From Chiloscyllium plagiosum (taxonomy: Eukaryota), in NCBI RefSeq assembly GCF_004010195.1, contig NC_057718.1:64238744-64302743 (forward strand): DNA of 64,000 nt, read 5' to 3'. The position numbers and the translations under genes are program-made. Within the stretch, counting starts at the first letter, position 1. Each line of letters starts with the position of its first letter. The notes under the pieces were generated by a model, which saw only the letters and a program-made list of their open reading frames with translations, was not told the DNA's origin and did no database searches. Below are positions 1 through 62,985 of this stretch, piece after piece.

Positions 1-290
1 ACCTGCACCAGCCAATCCTGTCCCTGTTCTAGCCATGTCTCCGTAATAGCCACAACATCGAAGTCCCAGGTACCAACCCACGCTGCAAGTTCACCTACCT
101 TATTTCTTATACTTCTTGCATTGAAGTATACACACTTCAAGCCACTTTCCTGTTTACAGACACCCTCCTTGGAAATTGATGCCATGTTCCTAACCTCCCT
201 ACACTCCTGGCCCTGCACCCTGAAGCTACAATCTGGGTTCCCATGCCCCTGCAGAGTTAGTTTAAACCCCCCCCAAGAGCACTAGCAAAC
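1..290 (-). mobile_element. CR1 LINE fragment: ORF1 end and ORF2 endonuclease N-terminus, continues left of the window
   Basis: Minus strand translates LKCVYFNARSIRNKVGELAAWVGTWDFDVVAITETWL, typical of the CR1 APE domain. It is preceded by an ORF1-end-like FASALGG stretch. Confidence 0.9.
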
Positions 291-343
291 CAAATTTTAA
301 ATTTTGGCATTTAAAATTACACAACACATCACATAACGGGTAC

Positions 344-501
344 ATTCATTGTTGATGATTGCAAGTGTTGAAAACATTCTCCCTCGGACCAATTTCAAAT
401 AATGGACTCTGGCATTCCTATGCCTTTTAACACTTCAGCAACACTAAACTGTGTTTACTGGGCACTCCACAGAATCAACCTTCTTCCAAACAAATGGAAC
501 A
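344..501 (-). pseudogene. Candidate decayed exon E of the unannotated minus-strand unit
   Basis: AG at 502-503 and GT at 342-343, both weak. A phase-1 join to exon D reads (V)FHLFGRRLILWSAQ*TQFSVAEVLKGIGMPESII*NWSEGECFQHLQSSTMN. Confidence 0.3.
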
Positions 502-2704
502 CTGCCAATACATATTAATCTCACAGATTAATACAGAATGTAACCATCACAACAACAGAAAATGGTGCCTTCATCACAACAATCATTTTGATTCACAGAC
601 AAGAAAATAATACAACAAAGCTCTTTCAAGAAACATTACTCTAATTGATGGATAATCGAATAGGGAACTAAGTAGAACGCATTACCCCATAGCAAATAGA
701 CTTCCAATATTCCATCATATATTTATCAAGGGCTGAAATTATACTGTACTTTTTAAAATCAATGCTGTATCAAATAAAGTACATTCACAAACAGAAATCC
801 AGTAATAACATGTGAATACTGATGTACCACCCTGCCCCTATCTGAAGCCAAAGATGACCTAATGTACAAACCAAAAATATAAAAATACAACCTATATCAT
901 TAATGTTTAGTAGGAAATGGCAGAAACTGCTTGCTATTAAGTCACAAAAGCATCTGATTTAGATAATAAATGAAACTAGAGTAATAACCAATACACACAA
1001 TTGCTAGGATCAATCAATATCCTGAGCACATGTGCCAATTGTCTTTGCTGGAGATGGGCAGTCAGTGCCTAGTCTGCTTTTCCAGATTGGGAACCAGGCT
1101 CCCCACATGTCCACCAAAGTCTCTGACCTATCCTGGAAGCCAGCCTCCTGTTATTGCTTCTGCTCCATGTGACTGGAGTGATGCTGTAACACCATAGGTA
1201 GGAGCCTCCTATCATCAGGAGTTGCAGCGGGTAGCAGCCAGAGAGTGACATTTGGATACAGCATTGCTGAAGGAAGTGCTGTGCAGGGTGGTGCAGAAGA
1301 TCTCCAGTACGAACTGAACCGATGATAGACAGAATTGACGTCCATTGTGGCAGAAAATAGGGTGAAGGAGAGGGCCAGGATAACTGAGTGGAGGAGATGG
1401 AGATTTCTACCTTAAGTTAAGGTAAGGGCAGCATGAACTCGTTTAGGGGAGAGAAGTAGCCAAAGTGACTGGCACCAAAATATGGATAGCAGGAATGAAC
1501 TGCTCAGCATGAAAAAGGCTGTTGTGTCAGACAAGCTGCTAACTAAACAAAGACTGTCATCATGAATGAGGAGTGGGCAATATATATGTTTACAATCAAA
1601 ATCCTGGGTAATCTTACGTAAAGATTCTGAACAAACAGCTCCCAGGATCCGCTGAGCAGACCAAGAAAGGCACTGCATTGGGATAGCATGGGTTTTAATT
1701 TTTATATTTGCAGACCACTTCATGAGATGCTCGTAGGCCCAAATGAATTAATTTACACCATGGAATTTGCTATTAGTAGATCTTCGATTAAACAAAACAT
1801 TTCCCTTCTCAAGAACCGATGATTTGCTGCTGATAAAAAAATTTCAATAAATATGGTTACTGCCAAAATGCCATATATTGCACAGTTTTTAAAAGAAAGT
1901 AAAATTTTCAATGAAGATTAATGCCATGCCCATGTTCACTGTAAATTTCAAAGTTTTGGCAAATGCAAATAAACCATCAAAAAATGGACACTCTCTGGAT
2001 GGAGGAGGTAAAGGAAGCTGACATTAAAACCTTCCACTGCTCCCTAGCTTAGTCGTAAAACAATCCTATTCCTTCATCACATTCCAGGCTATCATGTGTA
2101 TGGGTTTCCTCCTGTCCAATAGGAGTGATGACATGTTAAATATAATTGCAACTTCCTATATTTCACCATCCTTTCAGATGAGTTACATTTTCATGTTATT
2201 GGCTTTCAAAATATCAGTTTCCTTCTGCAGCTTGCAGCTGTTAGTCAGCCTTTGCTGATAATGGATTGCAAAAGCTGCATATATATCAGTACTATCAATG
2301 GCTTTACCTTATAATTTTAGCCAAAATGTTGTTACTTGCACATTGTGATACCAGTCTGGAGTATCTGAGGCTGCACATACTGTCCTTCTGGCTGCTGCTT
2401 CTTATCTTTAAGTAAGGCTCGTTAATTCCTTACACACTGTAACACACCCTTACTGACATCTGTACATAATAAGTTCTTAACTACAGCTCTCCCATGTAGT
2501 GACAAGACCTCATTCTTCATAAGCTCATTCAAGATCAGTTTCTCCTCTCTTACTGATTTCAGAATCATGTAATCAGAGACAGCATCATGATTTCTGTGAA
2601 TCTCATTATGCCACATTGCTTGTACCACGTAGACATTAAGATACCATCACAAAACCTCCATCACAGAAATGCAACTTCATGAAAATAACAAACAAGAATG
2701 ATAA

Positions 2705-2843
2705 AATCCCTACAGCCATTTGGCCTATTAAAGTCACACTGACCTTCCAAAAAACATCCTACCCAGACCCACACCATCCCTGTAAACCTGCATTCCCCAT
2801 GGCTAATCCACCTAGCCTGCACACTCTGGACGCAATGGGCAAT
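2705..2843 (-). mobile_element. HE1/V-SINE 3' fragment
   Basis: Matches the 3' part of the HE1-like copies at 43875, 46835 and 52500 (catggctaatccacctagcctgca). Confidence 0.65.
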
Positions 2844-2914
2844 GACTTTTCATCTTTTACTTAAATAATCTAACTTTGGGATTGCGAAAATGTATTTTAT
2901 CGATCTAGGATTCA

Positions 2915-3072
2915 ACAAAAAAGACATCTGAATGGGTATGTGAATAGGAAGGGTTGAGGGGGATATGGGCCAAATACTGGCAAATGGGACTAGATTAATA
3001 TAGGATATCTGGTCAGCATGGATGAGTTGGACCAAAGGATCTGTTTCTGTGCTGTACATCTCTATGACTCTA
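2915..3072 (+). mobile_element. CR1 (HER1-like) LINE 3' end
   Basis: gaataggaaggg...ggaccaaaggatctgtttctgtgctgtacatctctatgactcta tail, shared with many copies in the window. Confidence 0.85.
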
Positions 3073-3167
3073 AGCTCAGTTAATGATTTTGCATACTGAA
3101 ATGCCGCTTAATTATTGTAACATCAGTTTAAACTAGAAACTGTCAGAAACTCTTTCCTTAATACACC

Positions 3168-3285
3168 TTTTTTTGATTTGGTCGTGGCATGTGGAGGTGA
3201 CTAAACGGGAGAGCACTTATTGCCCATCCCTAGTTGCCCTTCAGAAGATGATGGCAAGCTGCCTTCTTGCATTGCTGCAGTCAGA
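3168..3285 (-). mobile_element. 3' end of a second LINE family (L2/Crack/Daphne-like)
   Basis: gcacttattgcccatccctagttgcccttcagaag, the same tail as at 35755, 42755 and 53350. Confidence 0.6.
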
Positions 3286-3568
3286 GCTAATTCGTTTATT
3301 CTATCTAAAACAACATTTTGCTGCAATTTATGGACGACAAAGTCTGTGCAGATGTGACTGAAGAAGCTTTAATTGCAGCCCCCAGGCACACATTAGGTGA
3401 AAAGAGACCTTCTTCCTGACTTGACACAGCCTATCAGTGTCCTATAAGGTCTATCAGTTTTCAGCTAATCAAGACACCAATGTGTCTTATTCCTCTCTTC
3501 ACTTAAGGACGGACTGGTTTTGTCCTTTCATTCCACTGCCCGAGAGGGAAGGTGAGGTTTACGTCCCT

Positions 3569-3582
3569 GTTGCTCTGGCAAC
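3569..3582. promoter_or_regulatory. Canonical RFX X-box
   Basis: GTTGCT-CT-GGCAAC fits GTTRCY(N0-3)RGYAAC and lies in non-repeat DNA. Function is not shown. Confidence 0.4.
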
Positions 3583-4011
3583 ACTGAACACCATGGAGGC
3601 CAGCAAATAATGCTTCTCTCCTTCAGGCAGAAATTACTTTGTCATTTTCAGGGTGCACATTGTTGGGCCTTTTAATAAAACTGAGAAGTAGACAAGCGTC
3701 TGTTTTACAAATGTGTGGCATATTATCAAATATAGATGTTCTGAGCTATTTAAAAATACAGCAGATAAACTAAGTTTAGTTCCCTAGAAACTCTCATGTT
3801 TCCCCCTTTCAGGCTCTCTACAGAGTTAATCTGTTTTACTTCCATTGAGGAAAGAACAATGTGCAGTGGCTTTCACCAGTTTAAAAACAAAGGCAAGAGC
3901 TGAATAAGAAGGAAATGTTGTCATGAGTTTCCATGACAAAGTACTTAACCATGTTTCTTTGTCTTTTTGAAGAATAACTGTTGTGACATAGTGCAGTGTC
4001 ATACATTATAC

Positions 4012-4183
4012 CTGAGAGATGAAAATCTTGTACTAGAAAGGCCAACACACACTTAGCAACAATAGGACCTCAAAGGTCTGATATTGTGCAGCACCGATAT
4101 CTAAACATGGGAAGATTTGGTTTACAGTGTGGATATTAAAACAAAAGTTGGTAATCTGTCTTATAAAATACTTGCAAATTGGA
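4012..4183 (-). pseudogene. Candidate exon D (172 nt) of the unannotated minus-strand unit
   Basis: Strong acceptor tttttttctccccag and donor cag|gtataa. Frame 0 reads SNLQVFYKTDYQLLF*YPHCKPNLPMFRYRCCTISDL*GPIVAKCVLAFLVQDFHLS. Confidence 0.45.
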
Positions 4184-4834
4184 CTGGGGAGAAAAAAACC
4201 TTCATTAACATTAGATTCATTCTCATAAGAAAAAAAATCAAAACCGCAAATGCTGAAAATGAAATAGAAACATAAGATGCTAAGATGCATGGAAGAATTT
4301 AATTTATTTTAGCCTTTAAAGTAGTATTATAAAAATAGAACGGTGGCAAATGCAAATCTATCAGATCCTGCAAGAATCAACTGATGTGCTCTGCACTGAC
4401 CCCTTTGGTACGTGTAAATTTAATAATTTCTGTTTAAGATGGTAACAATGGCACTTGAAATATTTTCAGTGCTAATTTTAGATTAGTGTCTTTCAGACAT
4501 TCTTGAATTTCTGGATAGTAATTCCAAAAAGCTGGGCCCCTTTGTGCCCCTTTTAAGATCCAATTTCCATCCTGCTTCTTTATTATTCTAAACTATTGAA
4601 TTTGTAGCTTTCTTTTTTCTTCTTTCACTGTTTTTATCTACATTCTCACATGCTTTCTCTCCACAGATGATGTCATTATTACTGAACATTTCCAACATTT
4701 ACTGCTATTATTTCAGATTTCCAGCATTGGTAGTGTTTTGATTTTGTGCTGCTAAAGTTCTGCTCTGTTATACTTTAGTATGGATGAGCACATTCAAGAG
4801 GACAGGCAGGAAAGGGGCACCAAGAAAAGAAAAG

Positions 4835-5760
4835 CTTGTATTTATATATAGAACTTTTAATATAGAAAAATCTCTCAAACTACTGAAGCATAATCAAGCA
4901 AAAATCAACAAATCAACAAGGAACATAAGGAGAAAGTGGGGACTGAAGAAGCTGGAGATCAGAGTCAAAAAGTGTGGCTCTGGAAAAGCACAACTGGTCA
5001 GGCAGCATCCAAGGAACAGAGGAGTCGATGGTTCAAGCATAAGTTCTTCATCAGCAATGTTGAGTGACTGAAAACTTGGAATGGGCTGTGTTTTAAGGAC
5101 AACCTTAAAAGGAAAAAAAAGGAAGTTGAGAAATGGGCCATAAAGTGAGAAAATTAGAGAGCTTGGAGGCTTAGCAATTGCAGATATAGACACCAAGAAG
5201 CAAAGGGATCTCTGGATGCACAAATGTCAGTTGGAGGATTTGAGTACTTGAGAAGGTTACAGACATAGGAACGTGTAAGACCTTAGATGGATTTGAGTGT
5301 GGTGATGAGATTGTCAAATCTGAAGTGTTGGAGATTGAGAACCAGTAATAAGAAAACAGTGGGGTAATGTGTAAATAGCATTTTGTGCAGGTTAAGATAT
5401 TATCAGCAGAGTTTAAAATAGCGAGTTTTGAGAAGATTTGTAGCTCAGGTTGAAGTTCTGGGTTCAGCTCAGCGAGCAAACCTACATCCATGAAAGTGAG
5501 CAGTCCAAAGTTTAAAATGAGCTCAAGCCGATGGAGGACAAAGGATGCAGGACATTGGAATAGTGATTTTCTTTTAGGTAACAAGGCAAGAAATAGGATT
5601 TTAGCAGTGCAGCAGCGGAAAAGCCAAGGCAGATCAAAGAAGAGTGATATTAAGAAGGTGATTCTTGTAATGGGGATTGCACAGCGTCAGAAAGCCAACC
5701 CAGGATCAAACGGGACAATGAGCTTGTGAATTGTCTTATTCAACTCAACTCAGTTTCCAG
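4835..5760 (-). mobile_element. Degenerate L2 LINE 3' portion with two Penelope-derived inserts (~4935-5060, ~5422-5492)
   Basis: ttgtatttatatatag L2-type tail followed by purine-rich antisense L2 body. The inserts match Penelope termini elsewhere in the window. Confidence 0.55.
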
Positions 5761-6599
5761 GCAGGGGCTGGATGTCACACAGAGAACAAAGAGGAAAATT
5801 GTGTTCGGGTGGGAAAGAGAGTGATTGGGCTGGAATGTGGGTAAGGGGTAGATGGAAAATTCAAGACTTTCTTGGGGGAAGTGTATCCTCTCCCATTCCA
5901 GGTGGCCTACAGGGAATGCTGGAAAAGCTATGCAGCTTGTAGAGCCTGCAGTTCTCATCTTCCTGACAACACTTAATAAAAGCACAGGGTTAGTTAGTAT
6001 CTTTAATTAAGCATAGAGTGACTGACCACTGAGAAATATTCAGCTAATCAGAAGCAAAATAAATTTGTGAAGGGTAGGTGATGCCTGATGAATCTGACTG
6101 AACTCTTTAAAGGGGTAACTGATGTAGTGGGGACCAGGAAAAGTCTATGTCTGTTATTTAGGTAACTTTCAGAAAGTATTTGATGAGGTCCATCATAAGA
6201 GACTTTAGACATAGTTGATACTCATGGAAATGAGAGGGAGGTGAGAAGGGTCAGACACAGGACAGGGATTAGCTTTCAGAGGACACATTCCTGCCTGCCA
6301 TCCATGTATCTGACTGCTAGAAGATTGGGACTATGGATAAGCTGCCTCACAACGTTGCCATGGTTTCGAAGTGGGGAAACTAGTCATTGTTTTTGCCTGC
6401 TCGGGAGCCAAATAATCAGTGAGTTAGTGAGTTGAGGCCCATAAAGGGCCATTAATTGATTACTTAAAGTCCTTAATTGCTGGCATTCTCATGCCCACTA
6501 GACCATCTCACCCAGCACTTTTGCTTAGGGGGAGAAAAGGAAGTGAGTTTCTCTCCAGGGCCGACTCACCCAATTATTTTCCCTTCTCATGACTCAGTT

Positions 6600-7285
6600 G
6601 CCACCTCCAGGTCCGCTGCCTCCGCACAAGGTGCGAAACCTGCACCCACACCTACCCGTAACCTCCATCCAAGGCCCTAAAGGAACATTTCAAATCCAGC
6701 AATGATTTTTCTGCACATTCTCCCACCTCATTTACTGCATCTGTTGCTCTTGATGTGGTCTCCTCTACACTGAGACAACCAAAAGTCAACTTGCAGAGTA
6801 TTTCAGGGAACACCTTTGATCCACACAGACCAAACAGCCCTACCGCCCAGTGGCCAACAACTTCAACTCCCCCTCACTCATCCCCAAGGAAATACAAATC
6901 CTGGGCCTCCTCCACTGCCAAATTAAAGTCACCTGCTGATTGGAGGAAGAACGCTTCATCTTCCGACTCAGGACTCTACAACCAAACAGCATCAGCACTG
7001 ACTTCACCAATTTCTAAATCCCCCACCTCCTCCTAGATCCAACCCTCTTGACCTGTCCATCTTCCTGCCCACCTATCCACTCCATCCTTCCCACTGATCT
7101 ATCAATCACCTCCTACCTGCATCCACCCATTTCTTTCCCACGTACCTTTACCCCAGCCCGAGCCCCACCCCTACTTACCCCTCAGCCCCCTTCCCTCTCC
7201 ACATTCCTGATGAAGGGCTTATGCTTGAAAGGTTGACTCTCCTTCTCCTCAGATGCTGCTGACCTGCTGTGCTTTTTCCATCTTC
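6600..7285 (+). mobile_element. Penelope-like retroelement 3' part (GIY-YIG remnant plus terminal repeat)
   Basis: Translates TSIQGPKGTF...HLIYCICCS*CGLLYTETTKSQLAEYFREH, followed by a C-rich tail and a ctgatgaagggc hammerhead-like motif at 7207-7234. Confidence 0.85.
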
Positions 7286-7739
7286 AGAGAGGAAAAATAT
7301 GCCCAAAGTCTCACATTGCTGGTATTGTACTATGTTAGGACCACACTGTTGGGGCAATGCAGCAGGACATCTACTGACTATCGGGTTTGTGCCGAAATAA
7401 AGGACTCACTATTAGTATATAGCACCAAATTAAAGGGAGAAAAGTCAATTTGCCTATATAAAGGTTGATGCACTTCAAAGTTTTCGGTTAAGAAAATACT
7501 TTGAGATACATCTGTAAAATACTAGTGTTTCTAGCTTTTCACTTCTCACTCAAATCTGGCTTCCTTTACCTGAATGAATACCCAATAGTTGTACCATAAG
7601 GAAAGCTTTAAGTACTGATCACTTTATTTCCACTATATTTCCATACCGACATCCTGGCCGGAAATATGCTGCTGGATTGCAGAAGACCAATAGTCATTAC
7701 TTGGAAGGTTTATCACGTAATTGAGGTGATGGGTTTTAC

Positions 7740-7837
7740 CTGTTTCTTGTGTTGAGGTGGAAGGTATGCATCCAAGAGAGAAGGAAAGGTGCTTTTTTTA
7801 TGAGTAGACATTTGTAGGTGGGGAGAAACCAGGACAG
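7740..7837 (-). other. Candidate exon C (98 nt) of the unannotated minus-strand unit
   Basis: Acceptor atttatttcattacag and donor cag|gtaaaa, with an alternative donor cag|gtaaag at 7568-7569. Frame 0 is open: LSWFLPTYKCLLIKKAPF... Confidence 0.45.
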
Positions 7838-8660
7838 CTGTAATGAAATAAATATTAGATAAGTATAAACTGCAGGATTAGAGTGGGTATTAGGAAAATG
7901 GGAAACAATCAGCTGGAACACATGGCTCCTCTTAGCAGCCATGTTTTCATGCATTTTAACTTTTCTCTAACTCTTCTGTATATGATTTTCATTTTTTGCT
8001 GTATCCAAACAATCATTCATGGCATGTATGCCATTGGAAAAAAGTCAGTATTCATCCAGGCAAGTGGAGAATATTTCAGAGAATATGTACAGAATTCCAT
8101 CTTTGACCTCCTTCTAGAGCCACTATATTTATATGGATGATCTAATTCAGTTTCTAGTCAATGGTAGCCCCCAGAATATTGGTGGAGATGTGGATGGTTC
8201 TCTTTCCCTTCTGTTTTCCTTTCTCTATCCACTTCTTTAGTTGAGAGTTCGTGCATGGCACAGTGTGATATGGTATAGTGATGTGGCATAGCATGGATTA
8301 CATTATCTTGTGTATCATGACATATTGTGTTTGGGTGTGTTGTGGCTGACAGGGAAAGGAAGAATTGCCATCTGCTTTAGAAGTCTGATTTGTGAGGAAT
8401 TAGTGGCTCTTGGCAGAGTTTAATTTTAGAACATCCAAGCCAAACTAGCCAGCAGTGCCTCATAACAAATGTTTTGTTAAGTGCATTTTAAGATGTTGGA
8501 TTCAATTACACAATAGCCACCAATTTCAGGTGTGCACTTGAGGAAAACCTATTTAGACAAAGTTATTTTTTATTGAGCATCAAATCATATTTGGAAATAA
8601 TCGGCTCGATATGCAATATGCCTCTTATTTGATATTATAAAGATAAAAGACAAACTGTAC

Positions 8661-8697
8661 CTCAGGAGTTGTGTCCACTGTCGCCATGTCAGAAAGC
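8661..8697 (-). other. Candidate exon B with start codon (MATVDTTPE)
   Basis: Acceptor cccccctcatttacag, ATG at 8687-8685 in strong Kozak context gacATGG, donor GAG|gtacag. Confidence 0.55.
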
Positions 8698-8841
8698 CTG
8701 TAAATGAGGGGGGAACGTGTAATGGGTGAAAGGGGAGTAAAAATAAAACTCAGGGATGACATCCAAACATTCCGCCAAACAAAGAGAAAATAACCAAAAC
8801 AACCCAATATATAGCATTTCGGTGCCTCAATCAGTACTTAC

Positions 8842-8920
8842 CCAAAGAAGATCGGAACAGTCAACTTCTGAGAGTGTTGTTGCTCTGGGTGACTGGAGAC
8901 GCTGTGCTGAGAGGATCCCA
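8842..8920 (-). other. Candidate non-coding first exon A (TSS approximate)
   Basis: Consensus donor tgg|gtaagt at 8841-8836, a 144-nt intron to exon B, and a locally CpG-enriched context. Confidence 0.5.
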
Positions 8921-9300
8921 CCCTCCGCCCACAAAACGCCGTGACGAGTTCCACTTTTGGTTTTAAAGCGAATGGTATTAATAGTTCTGCAGCAGGTAAT
9001 AGGTGGGTCCCCAGCACTTCAGTTCCCAGCCGCTGCTGTCTATAGATGAGACACAATATTCGCATTCCGGTTTGTGCTGGGGAATTACTTGGAATCCTAC
9101 CAAAAACGCTTCATGCTGCCCTGTATTTTCCTGTTAGAGCCTTTCACAATTACGTTGGGAGGACTCGCCACCCTCATTGTAAGCGTTATTCTACAGGACT
9201 GTATATTCCAGTCTCTCTTTTACTTAACCATCCACGACAAATTTTAAGACGAAAAATGTCCCTGTGAAAATGGCTGCTGAAACAAAATCCCGAAGACGGT
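8875..9300. promoter_or_regulatory. Putative promoter with mild CpG enrichment
   Basis: X-box-like GTTGCT-CTG-GGTGAC at 8879-8893, GC box ccctccgccc at 8921-8930, CRE half-site TGACG at ~8942, YY1-like AAAATGGC at 9267-9274. CpG density is visibly above the flanks. Confidence 0.5.
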
Positions 9301-9369
9301 AATATTACACAAGGTTAGATGTGCTTCTTTCAACTTAAAAATCTACACAAAACTCTGCTCGATAATGGA

Positions 9370-9570
9370 CAGGTTGGGTGACCACCCTAGAGGACACACT
9401 CAGTGTCAGCATAACTCCCAGCTACCAGGCACCTGTTACTTTAATTTTCAACTTTGCTCTCACATTGACCTCTCTGGCCTTAGCTTTCTGCAGTTTCCTA
9501 ATGAAGCTCAATCCACGTTCCGGGAAGAGCACATCACAGCCATTTTAGAGTATGGCCCATAGAGTTTGTG
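9370..9570 (+). mobile_element. Old Penelope-like GIY-YIG C-terminal relic
   Basis: RLGDH...CYFN...CSHIDLSGLSFLQFPNEAQSTFREEHI resembles the C-terminus of the 6600-7285 element. Confidence 0.55.
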
Positions 9571-10510
9571 CTATCTCTCTCCAAATCAATCTCGGCAGTC
9601 TCATTGCCCCACACTATCCCATTGGTTCTGTAAGTTTAGTTCCCTCAAGCATTCATCCTGTTCTTTTTGAAATCATTTATCATCTATTTTCCACCATCCT
9701 TACAGGCAGCAAGTTCCAGCTCATTACCACTCTGTGCATAAATATGTTCTTCACACATCTTCACTTTAAGACATTGTCCCCTTGTTTTTTATACAGCTGT
9801 TCTTTACCTACTATATCCAAATCTGTCATTATCATAAATCCTTCATCAACCTTTACTCCAAAGAGAAAGCCCAATTTCTCCAACCTAAACTTGGACCAAA
9901 ACCCCTCGCATCTGAATTCATTCTGGGAAATCTACTCTGAACTGCAATATACAAGTTGTGGCCTAATCAGATCCTTATAAAGGTTCAACATAATACCAAA
10001 ATGTGCATTTGGAGCCATGACCGGTGTTCACACGTTTGCAAGGTGGTTGAGACATTTCCAAGTCATGATGACAGGTTTTGCAATCATAGTTTACAAAAGG
10101 GAAAAAAATGGTTTAATTTTTCCAATTTAGAGGTAAAGGATTAGAAGTTATTTTGGGACCATTACATCAAGCAAAATGACTAAGGGTCTGCAGCAAAAAG
10201 TGCACTGATAAGTGTTGCGAATGGGTTTTCGAACCCTGGAGTAATATTATGATGATATCACAGAGCTGCTCCTCAATGGGGAGAAATAGCAACTTTTGGG
10301 CAGTCAGAAAAAGAGAGAAGCATATAGAGTAGACTAACAAGCATTAGGCAATAGAATTCACAGAATTTTCTTGCAATGATGGAGCTGTTAAATTAGAGCC
10401 TGATAAATCTTTGATGAGCAGGTATTGTAGTATTTAGTCTTAATGCCTAATAAACTGTTTATAAAGACGCCCAATCCTGAAGACAGTTCTTGATCTTGCC
10501 TTCTCCTCAA

Positions 10511-10537
10511 TCTGTCTGTCTGTCTGTCTGTCTGTCT
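10511..10537 (+). repeat. (TCTG)n microsatellite
   Basis: About 6 tandem TCTG units. Confidence 0.95.
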
Positions 10538-10599
10538 TGAACCCAAACTTATGGATGTGGGCATAACAACAAACAAAAGAAAGAACAACAGATTTCTTG

Positions 10600-12100
10600 C
10601 CCAATTAAAATATAATAAAGTAATTGTCTACTGACACACTCAACATGAATCAAATGAGACAACTGGGCAATATTGCATGCAACTTAGGCAATTAGCAAGG
10701 AACTGCGTCTTTGATAACATTGAACATCAGGAAGTCAAAAAAAACACAAATTATTGAAGGCTCTCTCTCCAGTCAGAAGCACCTGACAATGACAGAAGGC
10801 TGTCAGAGCTGTTATAGAGTCAGAATTACACAGAAAAAAAACAGATCATTCGGTCCAACTTGTCCACTCAGACCAGATATTCTAAACTGATTTGCCAGCA
10901 TTTGACCCATATCCCTCGAAACCTTCCTTGTTCATGGACATCCGACTCTACATTGGCCTCCACAACCTTCTCTGGTATATACGCAGCAACCTCTGCATAA
11001 AAAAGTTGCCCCTCAGGCCCTTTTTAAATCTTGCCCCTCACCCAGGGAACAGATCTTGACTATTAACCCCTTAGCCTCCGACGCTGCAAGGAAAAAAAGC
11101 CCAGATTACCCCAAAGCCCAAACCCTCTAATCACAGCAACATCCTTGTAGATCTTTTCTGAACCTTTTCAAGTTTAAAAACATTTTTCCTACAGCAGGAA
11201 GACCAGAATTGAATACAGTATTCTAAAACTGGCCTCACCAATGTCCTGTACAGTTGCAACATGACGTCCCAACTCCTATACTCAATGCATTAACCAATGA
11301 AGGCAAGCCTGCCAAATGTCTTCTTCACCAACCTGTTACCTGCAACTCCATTTTCAAGGAACTATGCACCTGCACCCCTTGGTTAGAGATAACAAGATCA
11401 CTATCACTTTCAATGTCTAGAGTTACTGAAGTTGAGACAGTCAACAGTAACTAACACACAGCAAATTCAACTCCTGTGAACACTGTCCATTGCTTAAATG
11501 CCAGGAAACCAGCTGCATAGCAACATCAGCAATCTCATAGGATTGAGCGTTTGGCAAGGAATGTTTCCACTGTTGCAATGCTGACCCATATACTATAGTG
11601 TCCTACTCCTGGTGAACAGTGTAACATTTGTGGGAAAATGAACCACTTTTCTCATCAGCAAAAGCAACTTCTAAGATTAATATCAAGAGAAGGGCATCAC
11701 ATATGCATGCCACATCAAAAGGATGAGAGAATATCGCCAATGTAGAATCAGATGACTCTGAATATACCTTTGTGCTCTCTTTCAGATGCAGCAATCAGCC
11801 AGGTGTGATAATCATTGTTGGCTACGAGGAAGTGAGTACTCCATAGGTACAAGAGCACTTGTCAATGTCACAGGGCACAAATGTTCAACAAACTTCAGAA
11901 GTGCCCTATTCTCTGCAAAGCTGGGCATATGAAAATTTTCCACTGCAATAGTGACAAATCACTGAATGTTTTCAGGACTTTTGAAACACGAGTCTCTTAG
12001 AAAGCCAATACAACAAACGCTGTATCCGACATCATTATGTCTTACTGGAAGAATGACTTGCTTATCAGTTTCCACACAGCAACAGATCTGACAGCATAAC
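10600..12100 (+). mobile_element. Degenerate Gypsy LTR-retrotransposon gag/protease relic, split by a CR1 insertion
   Basis: 10638: TQHESNETTGQYCMQLRQLARNCVFDNIEHQEVK (gag). 11553-11652: GKECFHC...CPTPGEQCNICGKMNHFS (gag zinc knuckle). ~12060: LISFHTATDL (protease-end-like). Confidence 0.7.
10815..11380 (-). mobile_element. CR1 (HER1-like) 3' fragment
   Basis: Reverse complement of the shared CR1 tail and ORF2 C-terminus (ggcctcaccaatgtcctgtacag). Confidence 0.85.
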
Positions 12101-13204
12101 ATACATGATCCTTATATGTGGCAATCATATTCTTGAATGCTGTACTGGCTGTTTGACTGATATCAGCAACTGTAAGATGTTAAAATAAAAGATCTACATT
12201 AATAGCCAGCTGCCACTTCAAGTCAGAAAGACAAAACAAAGTTTCCGAAGAGCCACATTAACTCTTGTTTCTCTCTCCACCGATGCTGCCAGAGGTGATT
12301 TTCTCTAGTTCTTTCTGTTTTGTTCCAAATCTCCAGCATCCTCAGTTCTTTGTTTTCTTAAAGGGCAATCATCAACTGTTTCATGACCAAAGGCTGTTTC
12401 CCGACAGGGTAGGCAGGATTCAATGTAAGCTTGCATGCTGCTCTTGGTATATATCAATGATTTAGATATAACTATAGGGGGCATGATTAAGAAATTTCCA
12501 GATGATACAAAAATTCTTGCTATCCATTTAAGAGAACAAATTTACAGAATGTGTTAAAATCAGAGGTTTGCATTCATAGAATATACAGTATTGCAAGATG
12601 TGTCATCAAAAAGTCAGTACAGATTCTAAATGTTGGCCTCTACTTGGTTGATTTCTTCCAAGGTCTCAGCACCTGGAATTTCTTTTATAGTCTTCTCATA
12701 AAGAAATCAGAGCTGCAACAAACAACCTTGTTCCTCTGAGAATCATGCCTTCCCAGACTAGGGGTTGGGACCCAAGATGGGTTCATGACCTCTGAGGCAG
12801 CAATGGCCATCATGGAGGTCTCAACAAGTTCTAACAGTCATACTCCCTTTCTAAAAGGTTCCTACTCTCAGTTTTCACTGCAAGGTTGCGCCCGTTTTCA
12901 GGCCTCAAACTGAGGTCAGTGGGTAAAGGTTTGGGAAGCACAGGAGACTGCCATTCAGCCTATTAGGCTGTGCAAAGTCTTTGAAAATACAGTAAAGCCT
13001 GGCACACATCCCTGCCTTTTGCCTAGCATTTACTGTTTGTAAAATATACCAGTACCATGGATGGATGGATTTAATACTGGGAATATGCGACCTTGTCTGC
13101 TTATGCACTTATTCTCACCATTCTCATTTGGATCTGGGTCCCATTAATTCCACAGTCTGCAGGGAGAATAAGCAAACTGTACTGTGGCACAGAGAGCCAT
13201 TCAA

Positions 13205-13238
13205 GTGTGTGTGTGTGTGTGTGGGGGGGGGGGGGGGG
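13205..13238 (+). repeat. (TG)n plus poly-G simple repeat
   Basis: gtgtgtgtgtgtgtgtgtg followed by a G run. Confidence 0.95.
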
Positions 13239-13539
13239 AAGAAATAAAGAAAAATGTTATAGTGCATAGTTAGAGGAATGGATCTGTTCTCTGTAGCAAA
13301 AACAGAGACCCAAAGACTGTGTTCCCCACTTACTGTCAGAGGTGTGAAGAAAATGGGAAAATAAAATAAGGGGGAAGATCGGTAGATGAGCAGCGGCAGA
13401 CATTTAAGCAGATATCTCCTAATACTCAGCAAAAGTGTACTCTAGTCATTCTAGTCAGAAAGGACATGATGAAAACAATGAAAGTCTCATTGTTAACAAA
13501 GGAGGTCAAATAGTGTATCCAATCAAAATCTAATGCATA

Positions 13540-15285
13540 CAAAGTGCTGGAAATTAAAGGTCGTCAGAGGATTTTTTTAGGAACCAGCAGCAGATGACTA
13601 AAAAGTGATTATAGGGAGAAAATCGATTATGAAAGTTAATTGACAAGAAATACAAAAACAAGCAGCAGGAGCTTTTATCAGTTTATAGAAAGACTAAACT
13701 AAGTGTAGCACTCTTTTGGGATGGGACTGGGGAGTTGATAATAAGGAACAGGGAAATGGCTGATAATTTGAAACCAATGTTTTGCATTTGTCTTCATGGT
13801 GAAGGACACTATAAACATCCCAAAGATATCACAGGAGGAAGGGTAATAATGGGAGTAAAATTCTTGTAACAGGCTCTATCATAAGGCAGAACATATCGGT
13901 AACTAATGGGCATGAAGCCAGACAGATAGACAGGACACAACGGCCAGCATCCAAGGATTTTAAAGGAAGTGGCTGCAGGGATAGTGAAAGAACTGTTTGA
14001 AATATTTATGAACTCACTGGATTCCTGCAGGGTTCCAGTAAATTGGGAAAACTGTGAATGTGACAGCCCTGCTCAATAAGAGAGGCAGAAAACAGGAAAA
14101 TATAAGCCAGTTGGCCAACAGCTGTTATTGGAAAATACTATGGTTCATTATTAAGGAAGAAATTGCAAGATATTTCAAAAATCTGAAGACAATCAGAGCC
14201 AACATAGCTTTTAAAAGGGTAATAATGGTTGGCAAATTTGCTGGAGTTCTTTGAAGATATAACAAGCAGAATTGAAGATAGAACTTGTCCGTTTGTCCTA
14301 GTGTATTTGGATCTCCAGAAAGAATTTAGTAAGGTGGCATATAAAAGGTTATTTTACAAGATAGCAGATCATGCTACTGTGATAATGTACTAAAGTGGAT
14401 CAAAGATCGGTTAGCACACAGAAGAGAGAGCATCAGGATGAATGCGTCTTTTTCAGATTGGAAAGACGCAACTAGCTAGGTGTCACAAGCACCAGACTTA
14501 AGGTCTCAATTACTTACTATCTATATTAATGCCTTGGAGGAGGGTGCAGTGTGTAAGGTTTGAAAATTTGCTGATGATAAAAAAAGGGTGGGAGAGTATG
14601 TTGTGATGAGGACAGAAGTACCAATAAGCCAATAACTACTTCAAGTTTCTATAAGGAATCTGCAAGGGAATAGGTTGTGAGTGGGCAAAGACTTTGGAGA
14701 TGGAATATAATGTAATTTCTTGGGAAGAATCAAATGGCAGACTATTGTTTAAATGAAGAGCAACTTCACAAAAAGTGAAGGTTTTGGGTTCTTGCACATG
14801 AAACACAAAACATTAGCATACAGACACAGTAGATAATTAAGAAGGCAAATGGAACTTTGGCCTCTATTGTTAGGGCTTGAAGTAGGGAAGACTTGTTACA
14901 ACTGTACATGATATTGGCGTGGCCAAAGCTGGAGTGCTGTATACAGTTTTGGTCCCATATTTAAGGATATGCTGGCATTGGAGGCTGTTCAAATGGGATT
15001 CACTCAGCTGATTCTTGGGATGAAGGGATCACTTATCAAGAACAGCTACTGTGTTCAATACTGTGTTCAGGATGTTGCTAGGGTTGGAGGGGTTGAGCTA
15101 TAGGGAAAAGCTGAATAGGCTGGAGCTATTTTCCCTGGAGCATCAGAGGCCAAGGGGTGACCTTATAGAAGTTTATAAAATCACAAGAGGCATTGATGGG
15201 GTGAATAGCCAAGGTCTTTTTTTTCCCAGGGTAGGGGAGACCAAAACTAGGGGGCATAGGTTTAGGGTGAGAGGGGTACAATTTA
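13540..15285 (+). mobile_element. Degenerate CR1 ORF2 (RT) fragment joined to a HER1-like 3' fragment (15065-15285)
   Basis: RT motif remnants VYLDLQK and KFADD. The 15051 ORF reads GLEGLSYREKLNRLELFSLEHQRPRGDLIEVYKI. Confidence 0.85.
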
Positions 15286-15539
15286 ATCACTAGTTCCAAA
15301 GTGCTGTCCCACTGTCAGCTTGCCCTGCCTTATTTCCCCAAGAGAAAGTGAAGTTTTATGCCTTCTCTAGTAGTTACATCATACACTTGAATAAAAAGGT
15401 TTTTGATTCCTCTCCAACCAAGCCCTTTACACTATGACATTCCCAGTCTATGTTTTGAAAGTTAGAATCCCCTACCACTACAATCCGAAAACTCTTACAG
15501 ATTTCAGAGATCTCCTTACATATTTGCTTCTTAATTTCC

Positions 15540-16030
15540 TGCTGACTGTTGGAGGGCCAATCCCAATAAGGTGATCATCGCTTTCCTATTTCTCAGGTCT
15601 ATCCATATAACTTAACTGGACAGTCTACCAGGAATACTCACCCTAAGATTAGAGTGGTGCTGGAAATGATGAAGGGCTCCTGCCCGAAACGTCGATTTTC
15701 CTGCTTCTCGGATGCTGCCTGACCTGCTGTGCATTTCCAGCACCACTCTAATCTTGATCTAATCTCCAGCATCTGCAGTGCTCACTTTCGCCTATATTCT
15801 CCCAAACTACAGCCGTTAAGTTATCCTTAACCAAGAATGCCACTCCCTCATCTCTCTTGCGCGCCCCTCCAACCTTCCAATGGCATCTATACCTAGAAGC
15901 TGCCAGTCCTGCCCCTCCTTGAGCCACGTTTCTGTATTAGCTATGATATCCCAGTCTCATGTTCACAACCATGCCGAGTTCATCTGCTTTTCCTGTCAGA
16001 CCTTTGGCATTGAAATAAATGCAATTTATT
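15540..16030 (-). mobile_element. CR1 endonuclease-region relic
   Basis: Minus strand reads WDIIANTETWL at ~15920-15955. Confidence 0.7.
15645..15792 (+). mobile_element. Mini Penelope-derived element with a 24-bp inverted repeat
   Basis: aagattagagtggtgctggaaatg (15645-15668) is the exact reverse complement of 15732-15755. It encloses tgatgaagggc-tcct-gcccgaaacgtc. Confidence 0.8.
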
Positions 16031-16707
16031 AGCCTTACCTTATTTTCTACCTTGCTATTACCTGCCTTGACTATTTAACTTGCTCTTCTCTACTGTATCA
16101 GCCTTAGACTGAGTAATATTGACACCAACTCCCAGGAACAGAGCATTCTTCAAATGTTTAAGCTTGTACAAAGGATGGCTTGTTCTTCAGCCAACACACT
16201 GATAGGTGGTTTGTGAGCAATATGGGTTCAAATCAATCTAAACTGAATGCTCCAAGAAGTTAACAAAACAAACTCTCAAATCATATGTAAGAGAACAAAG
16301 TTCCAAAATTTGGGTAGGACAGTTTTAAGTATCCATGAAAAATATCTGCAAAACATATAAAGGAACAGGCAACTTGGAAGTTGAAAATAAATTACTACAA
16401 GATTTATCATTTAAGTATATTAATTTCAGAGGCCTGAATAGGCTGAAATGTATCTCTCCCTGAAATCACTGATTTCTTGTAAAACATTTTTCATAGGCTA
16501 TTCCTCATTATGTACTTGTGTCAACTGAATCACAATTTTAAATGGCAATTCTTGATATTCGAGTCACTTACATTCATTTTTAAAAGCCATTTCAAAATTA
16601 ACAAGAAAAGATTATTTAATCTACGTCTAAAAGTAATTAAGTATAAGATCTGCACTGTATGCGGCAATGCTTTAATGACAATTTGTTAAACATTCAAAAT
16701 AAGCCAG

Positions 16708-16725
16708 TTTATTTTTAGATTTATT
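16708..16725 (-). terminator. Candidate PRR18 polyadenylation signals (two AATAAA)
   Basis: Minus strand TGTAC-AATAAA-tctaaa-AATAAA followed by U-rich sequence. Weaker ATTAAA sites lie at 17623 and 17679. Confidence 0.35.
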
Positions 16726-16872
16726 GTACACTTTGCACATTCAGTTGTCCACATCACGAGCAGATAGCAGGTATAAATATAAAGTCTTGCTCTGGTAGTC
16801 CTCTCATTTGTCCATTCCTCACTTCTCATTACAGGTCATATCCATTTCTTGCCAGTGATATCATATTCACTC

Positions 16873-17400
16873 AGAGTCATAGAGATGTACAGCACAGAAA
16901 CAGACCCTCCGGTCCAACTTGTCCATGCCAACCAGATATCCTAACCTAATCTAGTCCCATTAGCCAGCACTTGACCCATATTCCTCAAAACCCTTTCCAT
17001 ATATACATCTAATGCATTTAAATGTTGTATTTGTACCAGCCTCCACCACTTCCTCTGGCACCTCATTCCACACATGCACCACCACACACGTGAAAAAAAG
17101 GTGCCCCTTAGGTCCCTTTCAAATTTTTCCCCCTCACCCTAGACCTATGCCTTATAGTTCTAGACTCCCCAACCCAGGGAAAACATCTTGTCTATTTATC
17201 CAATCCATGCCCCTCATGATTTTATAAACCTCTAGAAAGTCATCCCTCAGCCTCCAATGCTCCAGGGAGAACAGCCACAGCCTATTCAGCCTCTCCCTAT
17301 AACTCAAACCCTCTAACCCTGGCAACATCCTTGTAAATCTGAACCCTTTCAAGTTTCACAACATCCTTCCAATAGGAGGGAGACCAGGACTGCACACAAT
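16873..17400 (-). mobile_element. CR1 (HER1-like) 3' fragment
   Basis: ORF 17152-17352 reads RMLPGLEGLSYRERLNRL, and the shared 3' tail is present. Confidence 0.9.
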
Positions 17401-17901
17401 ATTTATATTTTGTTTGACAAGCCAGAACAATTTCACTTTTAACAAAACATATTTGGTAGATCATATCTGTCACGCAGCTCCAAACTAGACAGAGCACAAA
17501 ATGTACCCAAACATTGTGAAGTATATTCCTAAGAATAGTTCCTTTCTTGCACATTACCTTTTTTTTCACTTTACTGTAACATAAGCATCAACCCTCTCTC
17601 CCACTCAATAGTGAACTACATTTTTAATTCTTTAACGGGCACTGTTCTGTGGATCCTGGGTAAACCTTAACTTAAAACTTTAATTGTAGGAATAATGAAG
17701 ATTTCAAACAAAATGCAAACAGCCAGAGTAATGTTGATGGTGGATTTGCAGTTTTCATTCAGACAGGGAAGCAGTGTGGAGATTGCTGAAATCGGGGGGT
17801 GTGGGCGGGATGACTCACACCCTTAGCCGGTGTAGCTGGGTGGGGGACCAGCCTGGGCTCAGCCACCCCCGACTCTGTTTGGTGTCCGGTCCCGGGGCCG
17901 G

Positions 17902-18525
17902 TCAGCTGAGCGTCCGGGGCCGGGTAGCCGCCTCCTGTACCCCGTGCAGCCAGTCCAGGCACCTCTGGTGCAGCGCCGGGTCACCTGGTCCGCCCTCCTC
18001 CTCCTCCTCCTCATACTCCACATCGTCGTATTTGTGTTGGTTATTGAGCAGCGAGATCTTCACCAGGCCCCGGATATCGGCGGCTGCGGCCCACCGCGGG
18101 CCTTGCCTCCTGCTCCTCCCGGCCCCCAGCGGCTGGAGCTCCAGGCTGCGCCTCTGGATCAGCAACATGGCCTCGGGGGTCAGGCTGAGGGAGAAGCCCC
18201 CTTCTCCAGTGCTGTCCACCGGCCCGCTCCGGGGTGAGGTATCACTGCTCCCTCTACCCGAGTCCGCCGACCTGGAGGCGGGCCCGCTCTCACTCGAGCT
18301 GCCCGGAGCCCTGGGTCCCGCGGGTGGAGCCTGCGGTCGGAGGCCGCCCAGCCGCGAGGTGGAAAAGCGGGAGCGGCCCCGGCCCTTAGCCGGCGGCGCT
18401 GGGCCTGCCCTTGGCCCCCGCACCATCTCCTGCTGCCTCCCGGGGATACAGCAGCCTCCAGCTGGAGCCACTGCAGGGAAGGACACCGCGGCTCGGTGAG
18501 GCCTCGGACAGCTTTCCAGCTTCAT
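17902..18525 (-). CDS. PRR18: Proline-rich protein 18, single coding exon, 207 aa
   Basis: Family motifs FSLSLTPEAMLLIQRR, LVKISLLNNQHKYDDVEYEEE and QRCLDWLHGVQ match PRR18 (FCLNLTPEAVLVIQKR, KVSLLNERHRYDDVEYEEE, KCTEWLRGVE). It is adjacent to and co-oriented with SFT2D1, as in mammals. Confidence 0.93.
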   Translation of the reverse strand: MKLESCPRPHRAAVSFPAVAPAGGCCIPGRQQEMVRGPRAGPAPPAKGRGRSRFSTSRLGGLRPQAPPAGPRAPGSSSESGPASRSADSGRGSSDTSPRSGPVDSTGEGGFSLSLTPEAMLLIQRRSLELQPLGAGRSRRQGPRWAAAADIRGLVKISLLNNQHKYDDVEYEEEEEEGGPGDPALHQRCLDWLHGVQEAATRPRTLS

Positions 18526-18578
18526 TACCCCCGGCCGCTCTCAGGATCGAGTGACCCGAGAGCAAGCACGGGCCCCGC

Positions 18579-18594
18579 TTTATACCGGGGCGGG
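18579..18594 (-). promoter_or_regulatory. PRR18 TATA box and GC box
   Basis: Minus-strand TATAAA at 18584-18579, about 54 nt upstream of the ATG. GGGGCGGG lies at 18587-18594. Confidence 0.55.
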
Positions 18595-18602
18595 CTACCG
18601 TT

Positions 18603-18695
18603 CCCCGGGGCTGAGGCTGTCCCCTCCTCCCGCAGGCTCCCGTCCCTCCCGCGGGCTCCTCTCCCTCCCCCGGGGCTGAGGCTGTCCCCTCCTCC
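18603..18695 (+). repeat. 28-bp perfect direct repeat upstream of PRR18
   Basis: ccccggggctgaggctgtcccctcctcc at 18603-18630 and 18668-18695. Confidence 0.9.
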
Positions 18696-18944
18696 TCTCA
18701 ATGGGGATATGTTTGGGTAATAAATGCTGCTATTCACATCAACATCCACGTCCCAAACATTATGAAGTATATAACTAATGTTGCCTCACTTGTAAAGTTA
18801 CAATAATTTGATTTGATTGTCATTGAACTATTTTTGAGATTTATCTCAACACATTAGATTATATCACGAACAACACCAGAGATTCAAATTTATCCAACTT
18901 GTTGTAAGTTGCTATAGCCTTACCAGGCAAGAAGGCCTGGTTTA

Positions 18945-19112
18945 ACCTGAGGGTCAGCACACCTCAGGTGAGGGGGAAGAGAGAGAGAGAAAGTCATTAG
19001 TAGCAATTGCAGCTGGTGCAAGAATTGAACCCACGCTGTTGCATCACTCTGCAGACCAACATTCAGGATCAGTGGTGCTGGAAGAGCACAGACCAACATT
19101 CAGCCAACTGAG
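18945..19112 (-). mobile_element. tRNA-derived SINE relic carrying a 22-bp insertion
   Basis: Minus strand begins ctcagttggctg (A box-like) and contains gggttcaattc (B box). A related copy lies at 37630-37860. Confidence 0.55.
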
Positions 19113-19303
19113 AGTGTGAAAGGAGCCTAGATAAGTTTCAGAATTCAAGTGTTCTGAGCTAATCTTAAAGAATCAACTTTTTCAATCTGAATAATGAAAT
19201 ATGAAATTAAGAACATACATTCTGGAAAAAAAACTCAGGCCAGGCAACAGACTTAACATCTCACGTTAATGATGTTTCAATAGAACTTGGTATAATAGCT
19301 AAT

Positions 19304-19542
19304 ATCGAGTTTTGAGAAGATTTGTAGCACAGGTTGAGGTTCTGGATATGGGTTTGCTCGCTTAGCTGGAAGGTTTGTTTTCAAATGTGTTTAGGTTTCC
19401 TTCACCGACCTAAGGAAACATAAATAGGAGGCGGACCATGCCACCAGTGCTTCATCTGAAGGCTCACTGATGATGTTACCTAATATGGTGATGAAATGTC
19501 TGAAAACGAACCTTCCAGCTCAGCGAGCAAACCTACATCTAG
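19304..19542 (+). mobile_element. Internally deleted Penelope-like element (second family) with inverted ends and 11-bp TSD
   Basis: taatagctaat at 19293-19303 and 19543-19553. Inverted repeat ~19346-19388 vs ~19496-19539. Same termini as 53690-54385. Confidence 0.8.
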
Positions 19543-19765
19543 TAATAGCTAATTAATATAAACAAAGAACTCTGGATGCTGGATATCTGAAACAAACAAA
19601 AACAGAAATTTCTGGAGAAATTCAGCAAGTGTTTAAAGTTTTTGTGAAGATCTGTAGCTAGTGAGCTGTTTGCATTTGTTGTTAGGTCTGTTCGCCAAGC
19701 TAGTAGGTTTGTTTGCAGACGTTTTGTCCCCTTTCCTGCATGTCTGGTACCACATGTGGAGAGAA

Positions 19766-19965
19766 ATAGAGTCATAGTTATAGAGTCATAGAAATGTACA
19801 GTATGGAAAGAGACCCTTCGGTCCAACTCATCTATGCCAACCAGATATCCCAACCCAATCTAGTCCCACCTGCCAGCATCCGGCCCATATCCCTCCAAAT
19901 CCTTCCTATTCATATACCCATCCAAATGCCTCTTAAATGTTGTAATTGTACCAGCCTCCACCAGT
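19766..19965 (-). mobile_element. CR1 (HER1-like) 3' end
   Basis: Near-identical to the reverse complement of 32190-32360. Confidence 0.9.
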
Positions 19966-20019
19966 TCAGTGACCCTTCTTCAGAAATGTATTATTAGTTT
20001 TTAACATACTGTTAATCAT

Positions 20020-29692: not shown

Positions 29693-29722
29693 CTTGCATA
29701 GGGAATGTATGACAGACTATAC
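29693..29722 (-). CDS. SFT2D1: SFT2D1 exon 7 (30 nt): (W)YSLSYIPYA(R)
   Basis: tttttcag|GTATAGTCTGTCATACATTCCCTATGCAAG|gtgaga, matching the SFT2D1 peptide YSLSYIPYAR. Confidence 0.96.

Positions 29723-36754: not shown

Positions 36755-36850
<96 letters not shown>

Positions 36851-45614: not shown

Positions 45615-45755
<141 letters not shown>

Positions 45756-62868: not shown

Positions 62869-62985
<117 letters not shown>

Follow-up and report, generated by a model that had tools for sequence, protein, structure and literature searches.

Does the DNA between PRR18 and Brachyury in a shark hold a gene of its own and, if so, does that gene encode a protein, or did it ever? The question is raised by a stretch of 64,000 nucleotides (nt) of Chiloscyllium plagiosum (RefSeq assembly GCF_004010195.1, contig NC_057718.1, positions 64,238,744 to 64,302,743 of the forward strand; hereafter the window), in which a first-pass annotation had described, between positions 344 and 9300, a probably decaying multi-exon gene on the minus strand. 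In mouse, the gene T2 (brachyury 2, ENSMUSG00000058159) is flanked by Prr18 and T, all three on one strand, and the shark unit occupies the corresponding place: SFT2D1 and PRR18 lie upstream of it on the same strand, and its promoter-like segment is located 9 kb downstream of PRR18. We tentatively propose that the unit gives rise to a rare, spliced, non-coding RNA from the minus strand, starting at a CpG promoter, and that it corresponds to mouse T2 in position. Gene order, motifs, 5' splice sites and single-copy status were established directly. Of the earlier description, we retain the promoter-like character of the 5' end, the transcript from the minus strand, which is likely to be spliced, and the location corresponding to that of T2, but not the protein-coding past.

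The promoter-like segment and the candidate exons

The following features make up the candidate unit.

8550-9250, no strand assigned: CpG-enriched promoter-like segment, single-copy (from CpG count and contig depth), 43% GC
8924-8930, minus strand: GC box (Sp1-type), one of five in the window and one of two outside the PRR18 region
8879-8893, minus strand: X-box (RFX-type), one of two mismatch-free sites in the window
8842-8905, minus strand: exon A, non-coding, of which only the 3' end is fixed, by the GTAAGT donor at 8841
8661-8697, minus strand: exon B, 37 nt, with an ATG at 8687 in good context
7740-7837, minus strand: exon C, 98 nt, with a run of seven A residues (A7) at 7799-7793 and a second ATG at 7811; acceptor in the top 7%, donor in the top 2%
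4012-4183, minus strand: candidate exon D, 172 nt; acceptor in the top 5%, donor in the top 9%
344-501, minus strand: candidate exon E, doubtful; acceptor at the 39th, donor at the 37th percentile

The CpG-enriched promoter with X-box (8893-8879) and GC box (8930) that the first-pass annotation had reported could be reproduced in full. Within the 701 nt of segment 8550-9250, 21 CpG dinucleotides were observed where 7.1 would be expected (P 2e-5, or about 0.002 window-wide), which corresponds to an observed/expected ratio of 0.66 compared to 0.22 elsewhere in the window. This is the densest CpG cluster of the window outside PRR18, and all 12 best 400-nt windows by CpG count (n=717, with PRR18 and repeats masked) are found at 8551-9550, with their centre on 8550-9250. 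CpG islands are commonly delimited by a length above 200 nt, an observed/expected ratio above 0.6 and a G+C content above 50%; the segment exceeds the first two values (701 nt, 0.66) and falls below the third (43%). Its contig depth of about 20, as opposed to 10^4-10^6 on repeats, identifies it as single-copy, and for this reason it is not a young repeat. The GC box and the X-box were recognised by the consensus patterns of Sp1 and RFX binding sites, respectively. The segment covers only 1.1% of the window, yet contains one of the two perfect X-boxes, one of the two GC boxes outside PRR18, and the highest-ranking of 4,204 splice acceptors.

The 5' end of the unit (CpG segment, motifs and strong first intron) exceeds chance expectation, and its sequence suggests that 8550-9250 is likely to act as a promoter. 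The CpG dinucleotides may have survived since the segment would be unmethylated in the germ line, and factors of the Sp1 and RFX types would start transcription near position 8900, at a low level and mainly in ciliated cells or germ cells. The RNA would then be spliced from exon A to exon C, with exon B optional, and onwards in the direction of Brachyury through the less certain exon D and the doubtful exon E.

Two further sites with X-box similarity were encountered. The second mismatch-free X-box is located at 3569-3582, between exons D and E and away from the CpG clusters. A slight increase in CpG at 6300-6600 is accompanied by a one-mismatch X-box at 6367; with a depth of about 100-160, this region could be enhancer-like or a low-copy repeat.

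Splice sites were scored with approximate matrices, and ranked among the 3,620 GT and 4,204 AG sites of the minus strand. The AG/GT ends of exons B, C, D and E, the GTAAGT donor, the ATG at 8687 and the phases were all found in the sequence as annotated earlier. The donor of exon A belongs to the top 0.9%, while the acceptor of exon B ranks first of all AG sites and its donor is in the top 9%; donor A and acceptor B delimit an intron of 144 nt. The sites of exons C and D (top 2-9%) are comparable to those of the weakest real exon of SFT2D1. In exon E, a polypyrimidine tract is missing and the donor is weak. Self-BLAST and contig depth place no exon within a repeat, although old, diverged repeats could escape these methods, and an Rfam scan of positions 1-20000 gave no matches. 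Directly behind exon E, at 1-290, lies a high-copy LINE-like endonuclease fragment (depth about 5e5), which we take to be of the CR1/L2-type family.

Four of the 16 listed sequencing runs (X1, X3, X5 and X6) were compared with positions 1-10000. From run X5, a single-cell RNA run of which about 2% was read, 625 of 12,955,460 records could be placed, nearly all of them on repeats. Among 20 single-copy bins, five had any depth and two had at least 60 nt of cover: about 63 nt in bin 8685-9018 (exon A and part of exon B) and about 70 nt in bin 7683-8016 (exon C). In both bins, the orientation is that expected of an RNA from the minus strand. The remaining three bins with depth had 15-25 nt in the opposite orientation, and one of these is the bin of exon D. 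The chance that both bins with at least 60 nt are exon bins is about 0.05, as computed post hoc. Such a pattern could stem from a single read in which exons A and C are joined, or from two independent reads, and is a hint of transcription rather than proof.

These data also bear on the possibility that the promoter-like segment alone is real, be it as an orphan CpG promoter, an enhancer or a read-through exon of PRR18 (8986-8842), with exons C to E as chance pairs of AG and GT. Exon-like blocks of the quality of C and D are indeed common, with 4-18 of them in each 8.3-kb control segment; the splice sites of exon E are poor; an acceptor at 8986 would turn exon A into an internal exon of 145 nt; and no predicted junction is present among the joints listed. 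The RNA cover on the A/B and C bins, on the correct strand, argues against this explanation, as does the 144-nt intron enclosed by donor A and by the best acceptor of the window, and we consider it rather unlikely.

Reading frames, homologues and the question of a protein

Two reading frames had been put forward for the exons. Reading (a), an open frame of 91 codons formed by exons B, C and D from the ATG at 8687 and ending at TAG 4035-4033, is present as described, with 21 nt between its stop and the donor of exon D. Reading (b) was an ancestral frame through exons C, D and E, broken by the loss of one A from the A7 run and by two TGA stops that could have come from decay of CGA codons. Its phases do match, but the frame contains four stops (TAA 4138 and TGA 4072 in exon D, TAA 457 and TGA 397 in exon E), of which only the two TGA are compatible with CGA decay. 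Moreover, no lost A is needed, as the frame can be entered at its own ATG (7811, in exon C, with weak context), from which it stops after 39 codons.

The match of phases across the junctions does not exceed chance expectation: of 14 control segments (8.3 kb each), five contain an in-phase C-D-E chain of equal quality. As for the stops, 36% of control blocks of 172 nt have at most two in a given frame, a share that rises to 76% if the best of the three frames is taken. The amino-acid composition of all frames of exons C, D and E (percentiles 0.27-0.94) is like that of non-coding DNA.

Homologues were sought with several methods, using single exons of 32-57 residues as queries, so that a distant relative such as mouse T2 could be missed. 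A phmmer search with exon D in frame (b) against 1.84 billion representatives gave three matches, all tandem-repeat proteins, and these were rejected as homologues on that account. A word search among longer proteins returned nothing for exon D in frame (b), exon E in frame (b) or exon D in frame (a); for the latter, no protein of at least 87 residues matched, including proteins from the same species. Pfam likewise gave nothing for the candidate exons, while the controls, PRR18 and two SFT2D1 exons, were recovered. In the ESM Atlas no homologue was found for exon C or for exon D in frame (a), and the recognition value of the latter (1244) remained below the 2300 reached by known families. The PDB contained no matches for two frames of exon C, and for exon E a single helix-turn-helix-like match at chance level (E 1.6). 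This loose likeness, to PDB entry 2elh, concerns positions 400-460 of exon E in frame (b). The C-D part of frame (b) may resemble the repeat motifs of microtubule inner proteins. The PRR18 protein of the same species was present in the searched collection, which indicates that the annotated proteins of this genome were covered, and these searches should have detected a close orthologue, had one been intact in an annotated relative. In metagenome contigs no PRR18 locus was found. A literature search retrieved no paper on a shark T2, with the limits that most subscription journals were outside its scope and that a two-letter gene name is unsearchable.

X1 and X3 are DNA runs of other samples, from one study, and contigs of both span exon D with no differences, so that the stops of exon D are real rather than assembly errors; one X1 contig spans exon C without gaps, hence the A7 run is real in the X1 sample. 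The wider exon D block shows no differences in 757 nt of X1 (2.3 expected, P 0.10). The X1 and X3 contigs match exon E from position 417 upward only and then diverge (580 and 196 further letters, respectively); the samples differ in structure at this position, be it by an insertion, a deletion or another kind of rearrangement, and TGA 397 is outside the matching part of the listed contigs. Other contig ends lie at or near splice donors: an X1 match ends at 7739, the donor of exon C, with 27 letters unplaced, and an X3 match ends at 8838, just inside intron 1, with 29 letters unplaced. These ends are possibly variants at or near the donors. Upstream of the promoter-like segment, X1 and X3 share an 11-nt insertion (9368) and a 23-nt deletion (9775).

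Could frame (a) be that of a living micro-protein gene, with exons A-B-C-D encoding 91 residues from ATG 8687? Its RNA would be predicted to escape nonsense-mediated decay, because the stop is located 21 nt before the last junction. The frame remains open across two junctions, which for a fixed start has a probability of 0.5% by chance, and the X1 exon D block shows no differences. However, its C and D parts have the least protein-like composition of the three frames (percentiles 0.90 and 0.94), the D part matches no protein of at least 87 residues, its Atlas recognition stays at 1244 versus 2300 for known families, and the exons had been chosen partly for their open frame. We regard such a gene as very improbable.

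It is likely that the unit encodes no protein, in which case the short frames of 91 or 39 codons would be incidental. A protein-coding past is not supported by the sequence either, because no homologue was found, the composition of exons C to E is like that of non-coding DNA, and in-phase chains are common in the controls.

Several observations weigh against the rare, non-coding RNA that we propose. The RNA support amounts to one or two reads. None of the predicted junctions is among the 15 joints listed for X5 (a minimum of three reads each), there is no cover at all in bin 8351-8684, into which 24 nt of exon B fall, and exon D has only about 23 nt of cover, in antisense, and none in the sense direction; run X6, from the same sample as X5, placed no reads and is hence no test. 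A coding role receives some support from exon B, where the frame of the ATG is coding-like (top 1.5%, for 12 residues), and from the 91-codon frame, as an open frame of this length from a fixed start is present in 0.5% of control DNA. Furthermore, the region contains 14 in-phase C-D pairs compared to at most seven per control, with thresholds that were derived from the region itself, and the composition test is weak, given that it also misses genuine exons of SFT2D1 (percentiles 0.16, 0.45 and 0.84).

Mouse T2, the Brachyury enhancer field and decayed genes

The candidate unit resembles mouse T2 in position, strand and putative multi-exon structure, and a short protein on a long RNA has been proposed for T2. 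The two differ in that mouse T2 has an annotated open frame, whereas the shark unit has none beyond 91 codons. The case for orthology is made by gene order and a loose RFX parallel. The T2-T locus is so named in PMC8722351, which describes exon 2 of mouse T2 as coding, an overlap of the TNE/T3 enhancer with T2 exon 5, and T2 frameshift embryos without a trunk or tail defect. T2 is apparently absent from human (PMC3626178). The promoter of mouse T2 is listed with an RFX1 peak in at least one row, row 1985, without knockout expression values (PMC7498320), and T2 was not found in four supplements of PMC4498915. In two expression tables, T2 of rodents varies together with genes of the airway epithelium or with presumably ciliary genes (PMC4339611, PMC10894918).

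The core of the T3 enhancer that is common to skate and chimaera had no matches in the window with three mismatches allowed, and the unit may extend past position 1. A T3 enhancer inside the window was rejected on this basis, and exon E was rejected as counterpart of T2 exon 5, because the T3 core has no match in the window. A suspected codon conservation of T3 between chimaera and skate was dropped, as about 20 further species, inspected by eye, show shared stops and frame-breaking indels. Among these T3 sequences (PMC10584899 supplement) no frame is open across species; the coelacanth sequence is open in one frame, unlike most of the others. On the strand of T2, acceptor-like and donor-like sites about 100 nt apart could be seen by eye around T3 in turtle, crocodile, chicken, opossum and chimaera. 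Since this acceptor-like site doubles as an E-box, the splice-site reading is a lead only.

Long non-coding RNAs have been annotated upstream of vertebrate Brachyury/tbxtb and likened to enhancer RNAs (PMC10584899). They share with the shark unit the same interval and the lack of an evident protein; what sets the shark unit apart is its promoter-like CpG segment near PRR18, in which a GC box and an X-box are found. Any role of the unit would be exerted via its promoter, or via transcription across the enhancer field upstream of Brachyury, and not via a peptide.

An alternative explanation is that of a unitary pseudogene, i.e. the 5' part of an old T2 protein gene, driven by RFX and perhaps ciliary, that has been disabled by a frameshift in exon C together with four stops while its promoter is still active. 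Transcribed unitary pseudogenes are likewise single-copy, with a retained promoter and with stops common to several samples; they are defined, however, by an intact orthologue, and none was found for the shark unit in the searches above. The explanation agrees with the gene order SFT2D1-PRR18-unit, with the arrangement, typical of coding genes, of a first exon that is non-coding and a short second exon whose ATG is well placed, with the presence of the exon D stops in two other samples and of the A7 run in one, and with two of the four stops being TGA. The covariation of rodent T2 with airway-epithelial/ciliary genes (PMC4339611, PMC10894918) and the RFX1 peak on its promoter point in the same direction, but RFX1 peaks are common (T2 appears as row 1985) and T2 is without expression values in the knockout table. 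In addition, this explanation requires five lesions in about 140 codons; no protein relative was found for exon D in frame (b) among 1.84 billion representatives, nor for exons D and E by word search, nor in Pfam; equally good in-phase chains exist in five of 14 controls; and the T3 enhancer, which overlaps exon 5 of mouse T2, has no match in the window. Taken together, we consider a unitary pseudogene unlikely. In the main text of a catalogue of human unitary pseudogenes (PMC2864566) the word 'Brachyury' is absent.

A broader scenario, which we advance as a speculation and judge distinctly unlikely, is that T2 was an old, RFX-driven and probably ciliary protein gene of jawed vertebrates that died in this shark lineage, with promoter and splice skeleton kept because the body of the gene carries notochord enhancers of Brachyury. 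If T2 were old and had been lost repeatedly, T3 would be an enhancer that has grown inside an exon of that gene. If the shark unit does correspond to T2, the enhancer field upstream of Brachyury would have contained a transcription unit since the origin of jawed vertebrates. This would bear on the nature of T2, whether as a protein gene, a decayed gene or a regulatory RNA, as well as on the reason why the gene order has been kept. At present the locus is a single gene candidate, unannotated and probably non-coding, for which the evidence of expression is thin.

Neighbouring genes

Two neighbouring genes could be identified in the window.

17902-18525, minus strand: PRR18 coding sequence, 207 residues (Pfam PF15671, E 7.5e-21; exact protein in NCBI and UniRef)
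29693-62952, minus strand: SFT2D1, of which four exons were seen (motif scan, splice sites and Pfam)

The exons of SFT2D1 are located at 62870-62952, 45648-45729, approximately 36756-36814 and 29693-29722, and a Pfam scan of two of them recognised the family Got1 in each (E 0.041 and 4.4e-6). Brachyury was not seen within the 64-kb window. The order Sft2d-(Prr18)-Brachyury-Pde10a is kept across jawed vertebrates (PMC10584899), and Brachyury is therefore expected to the left of the window. Expression of mouse Prr18 is lowered in RFX knockouts, and its promoter carries an RFX1 peak (PMC7498320 and PMC4498915 supplements), so that Prr18 and its neighbour may share control by RFX factors.

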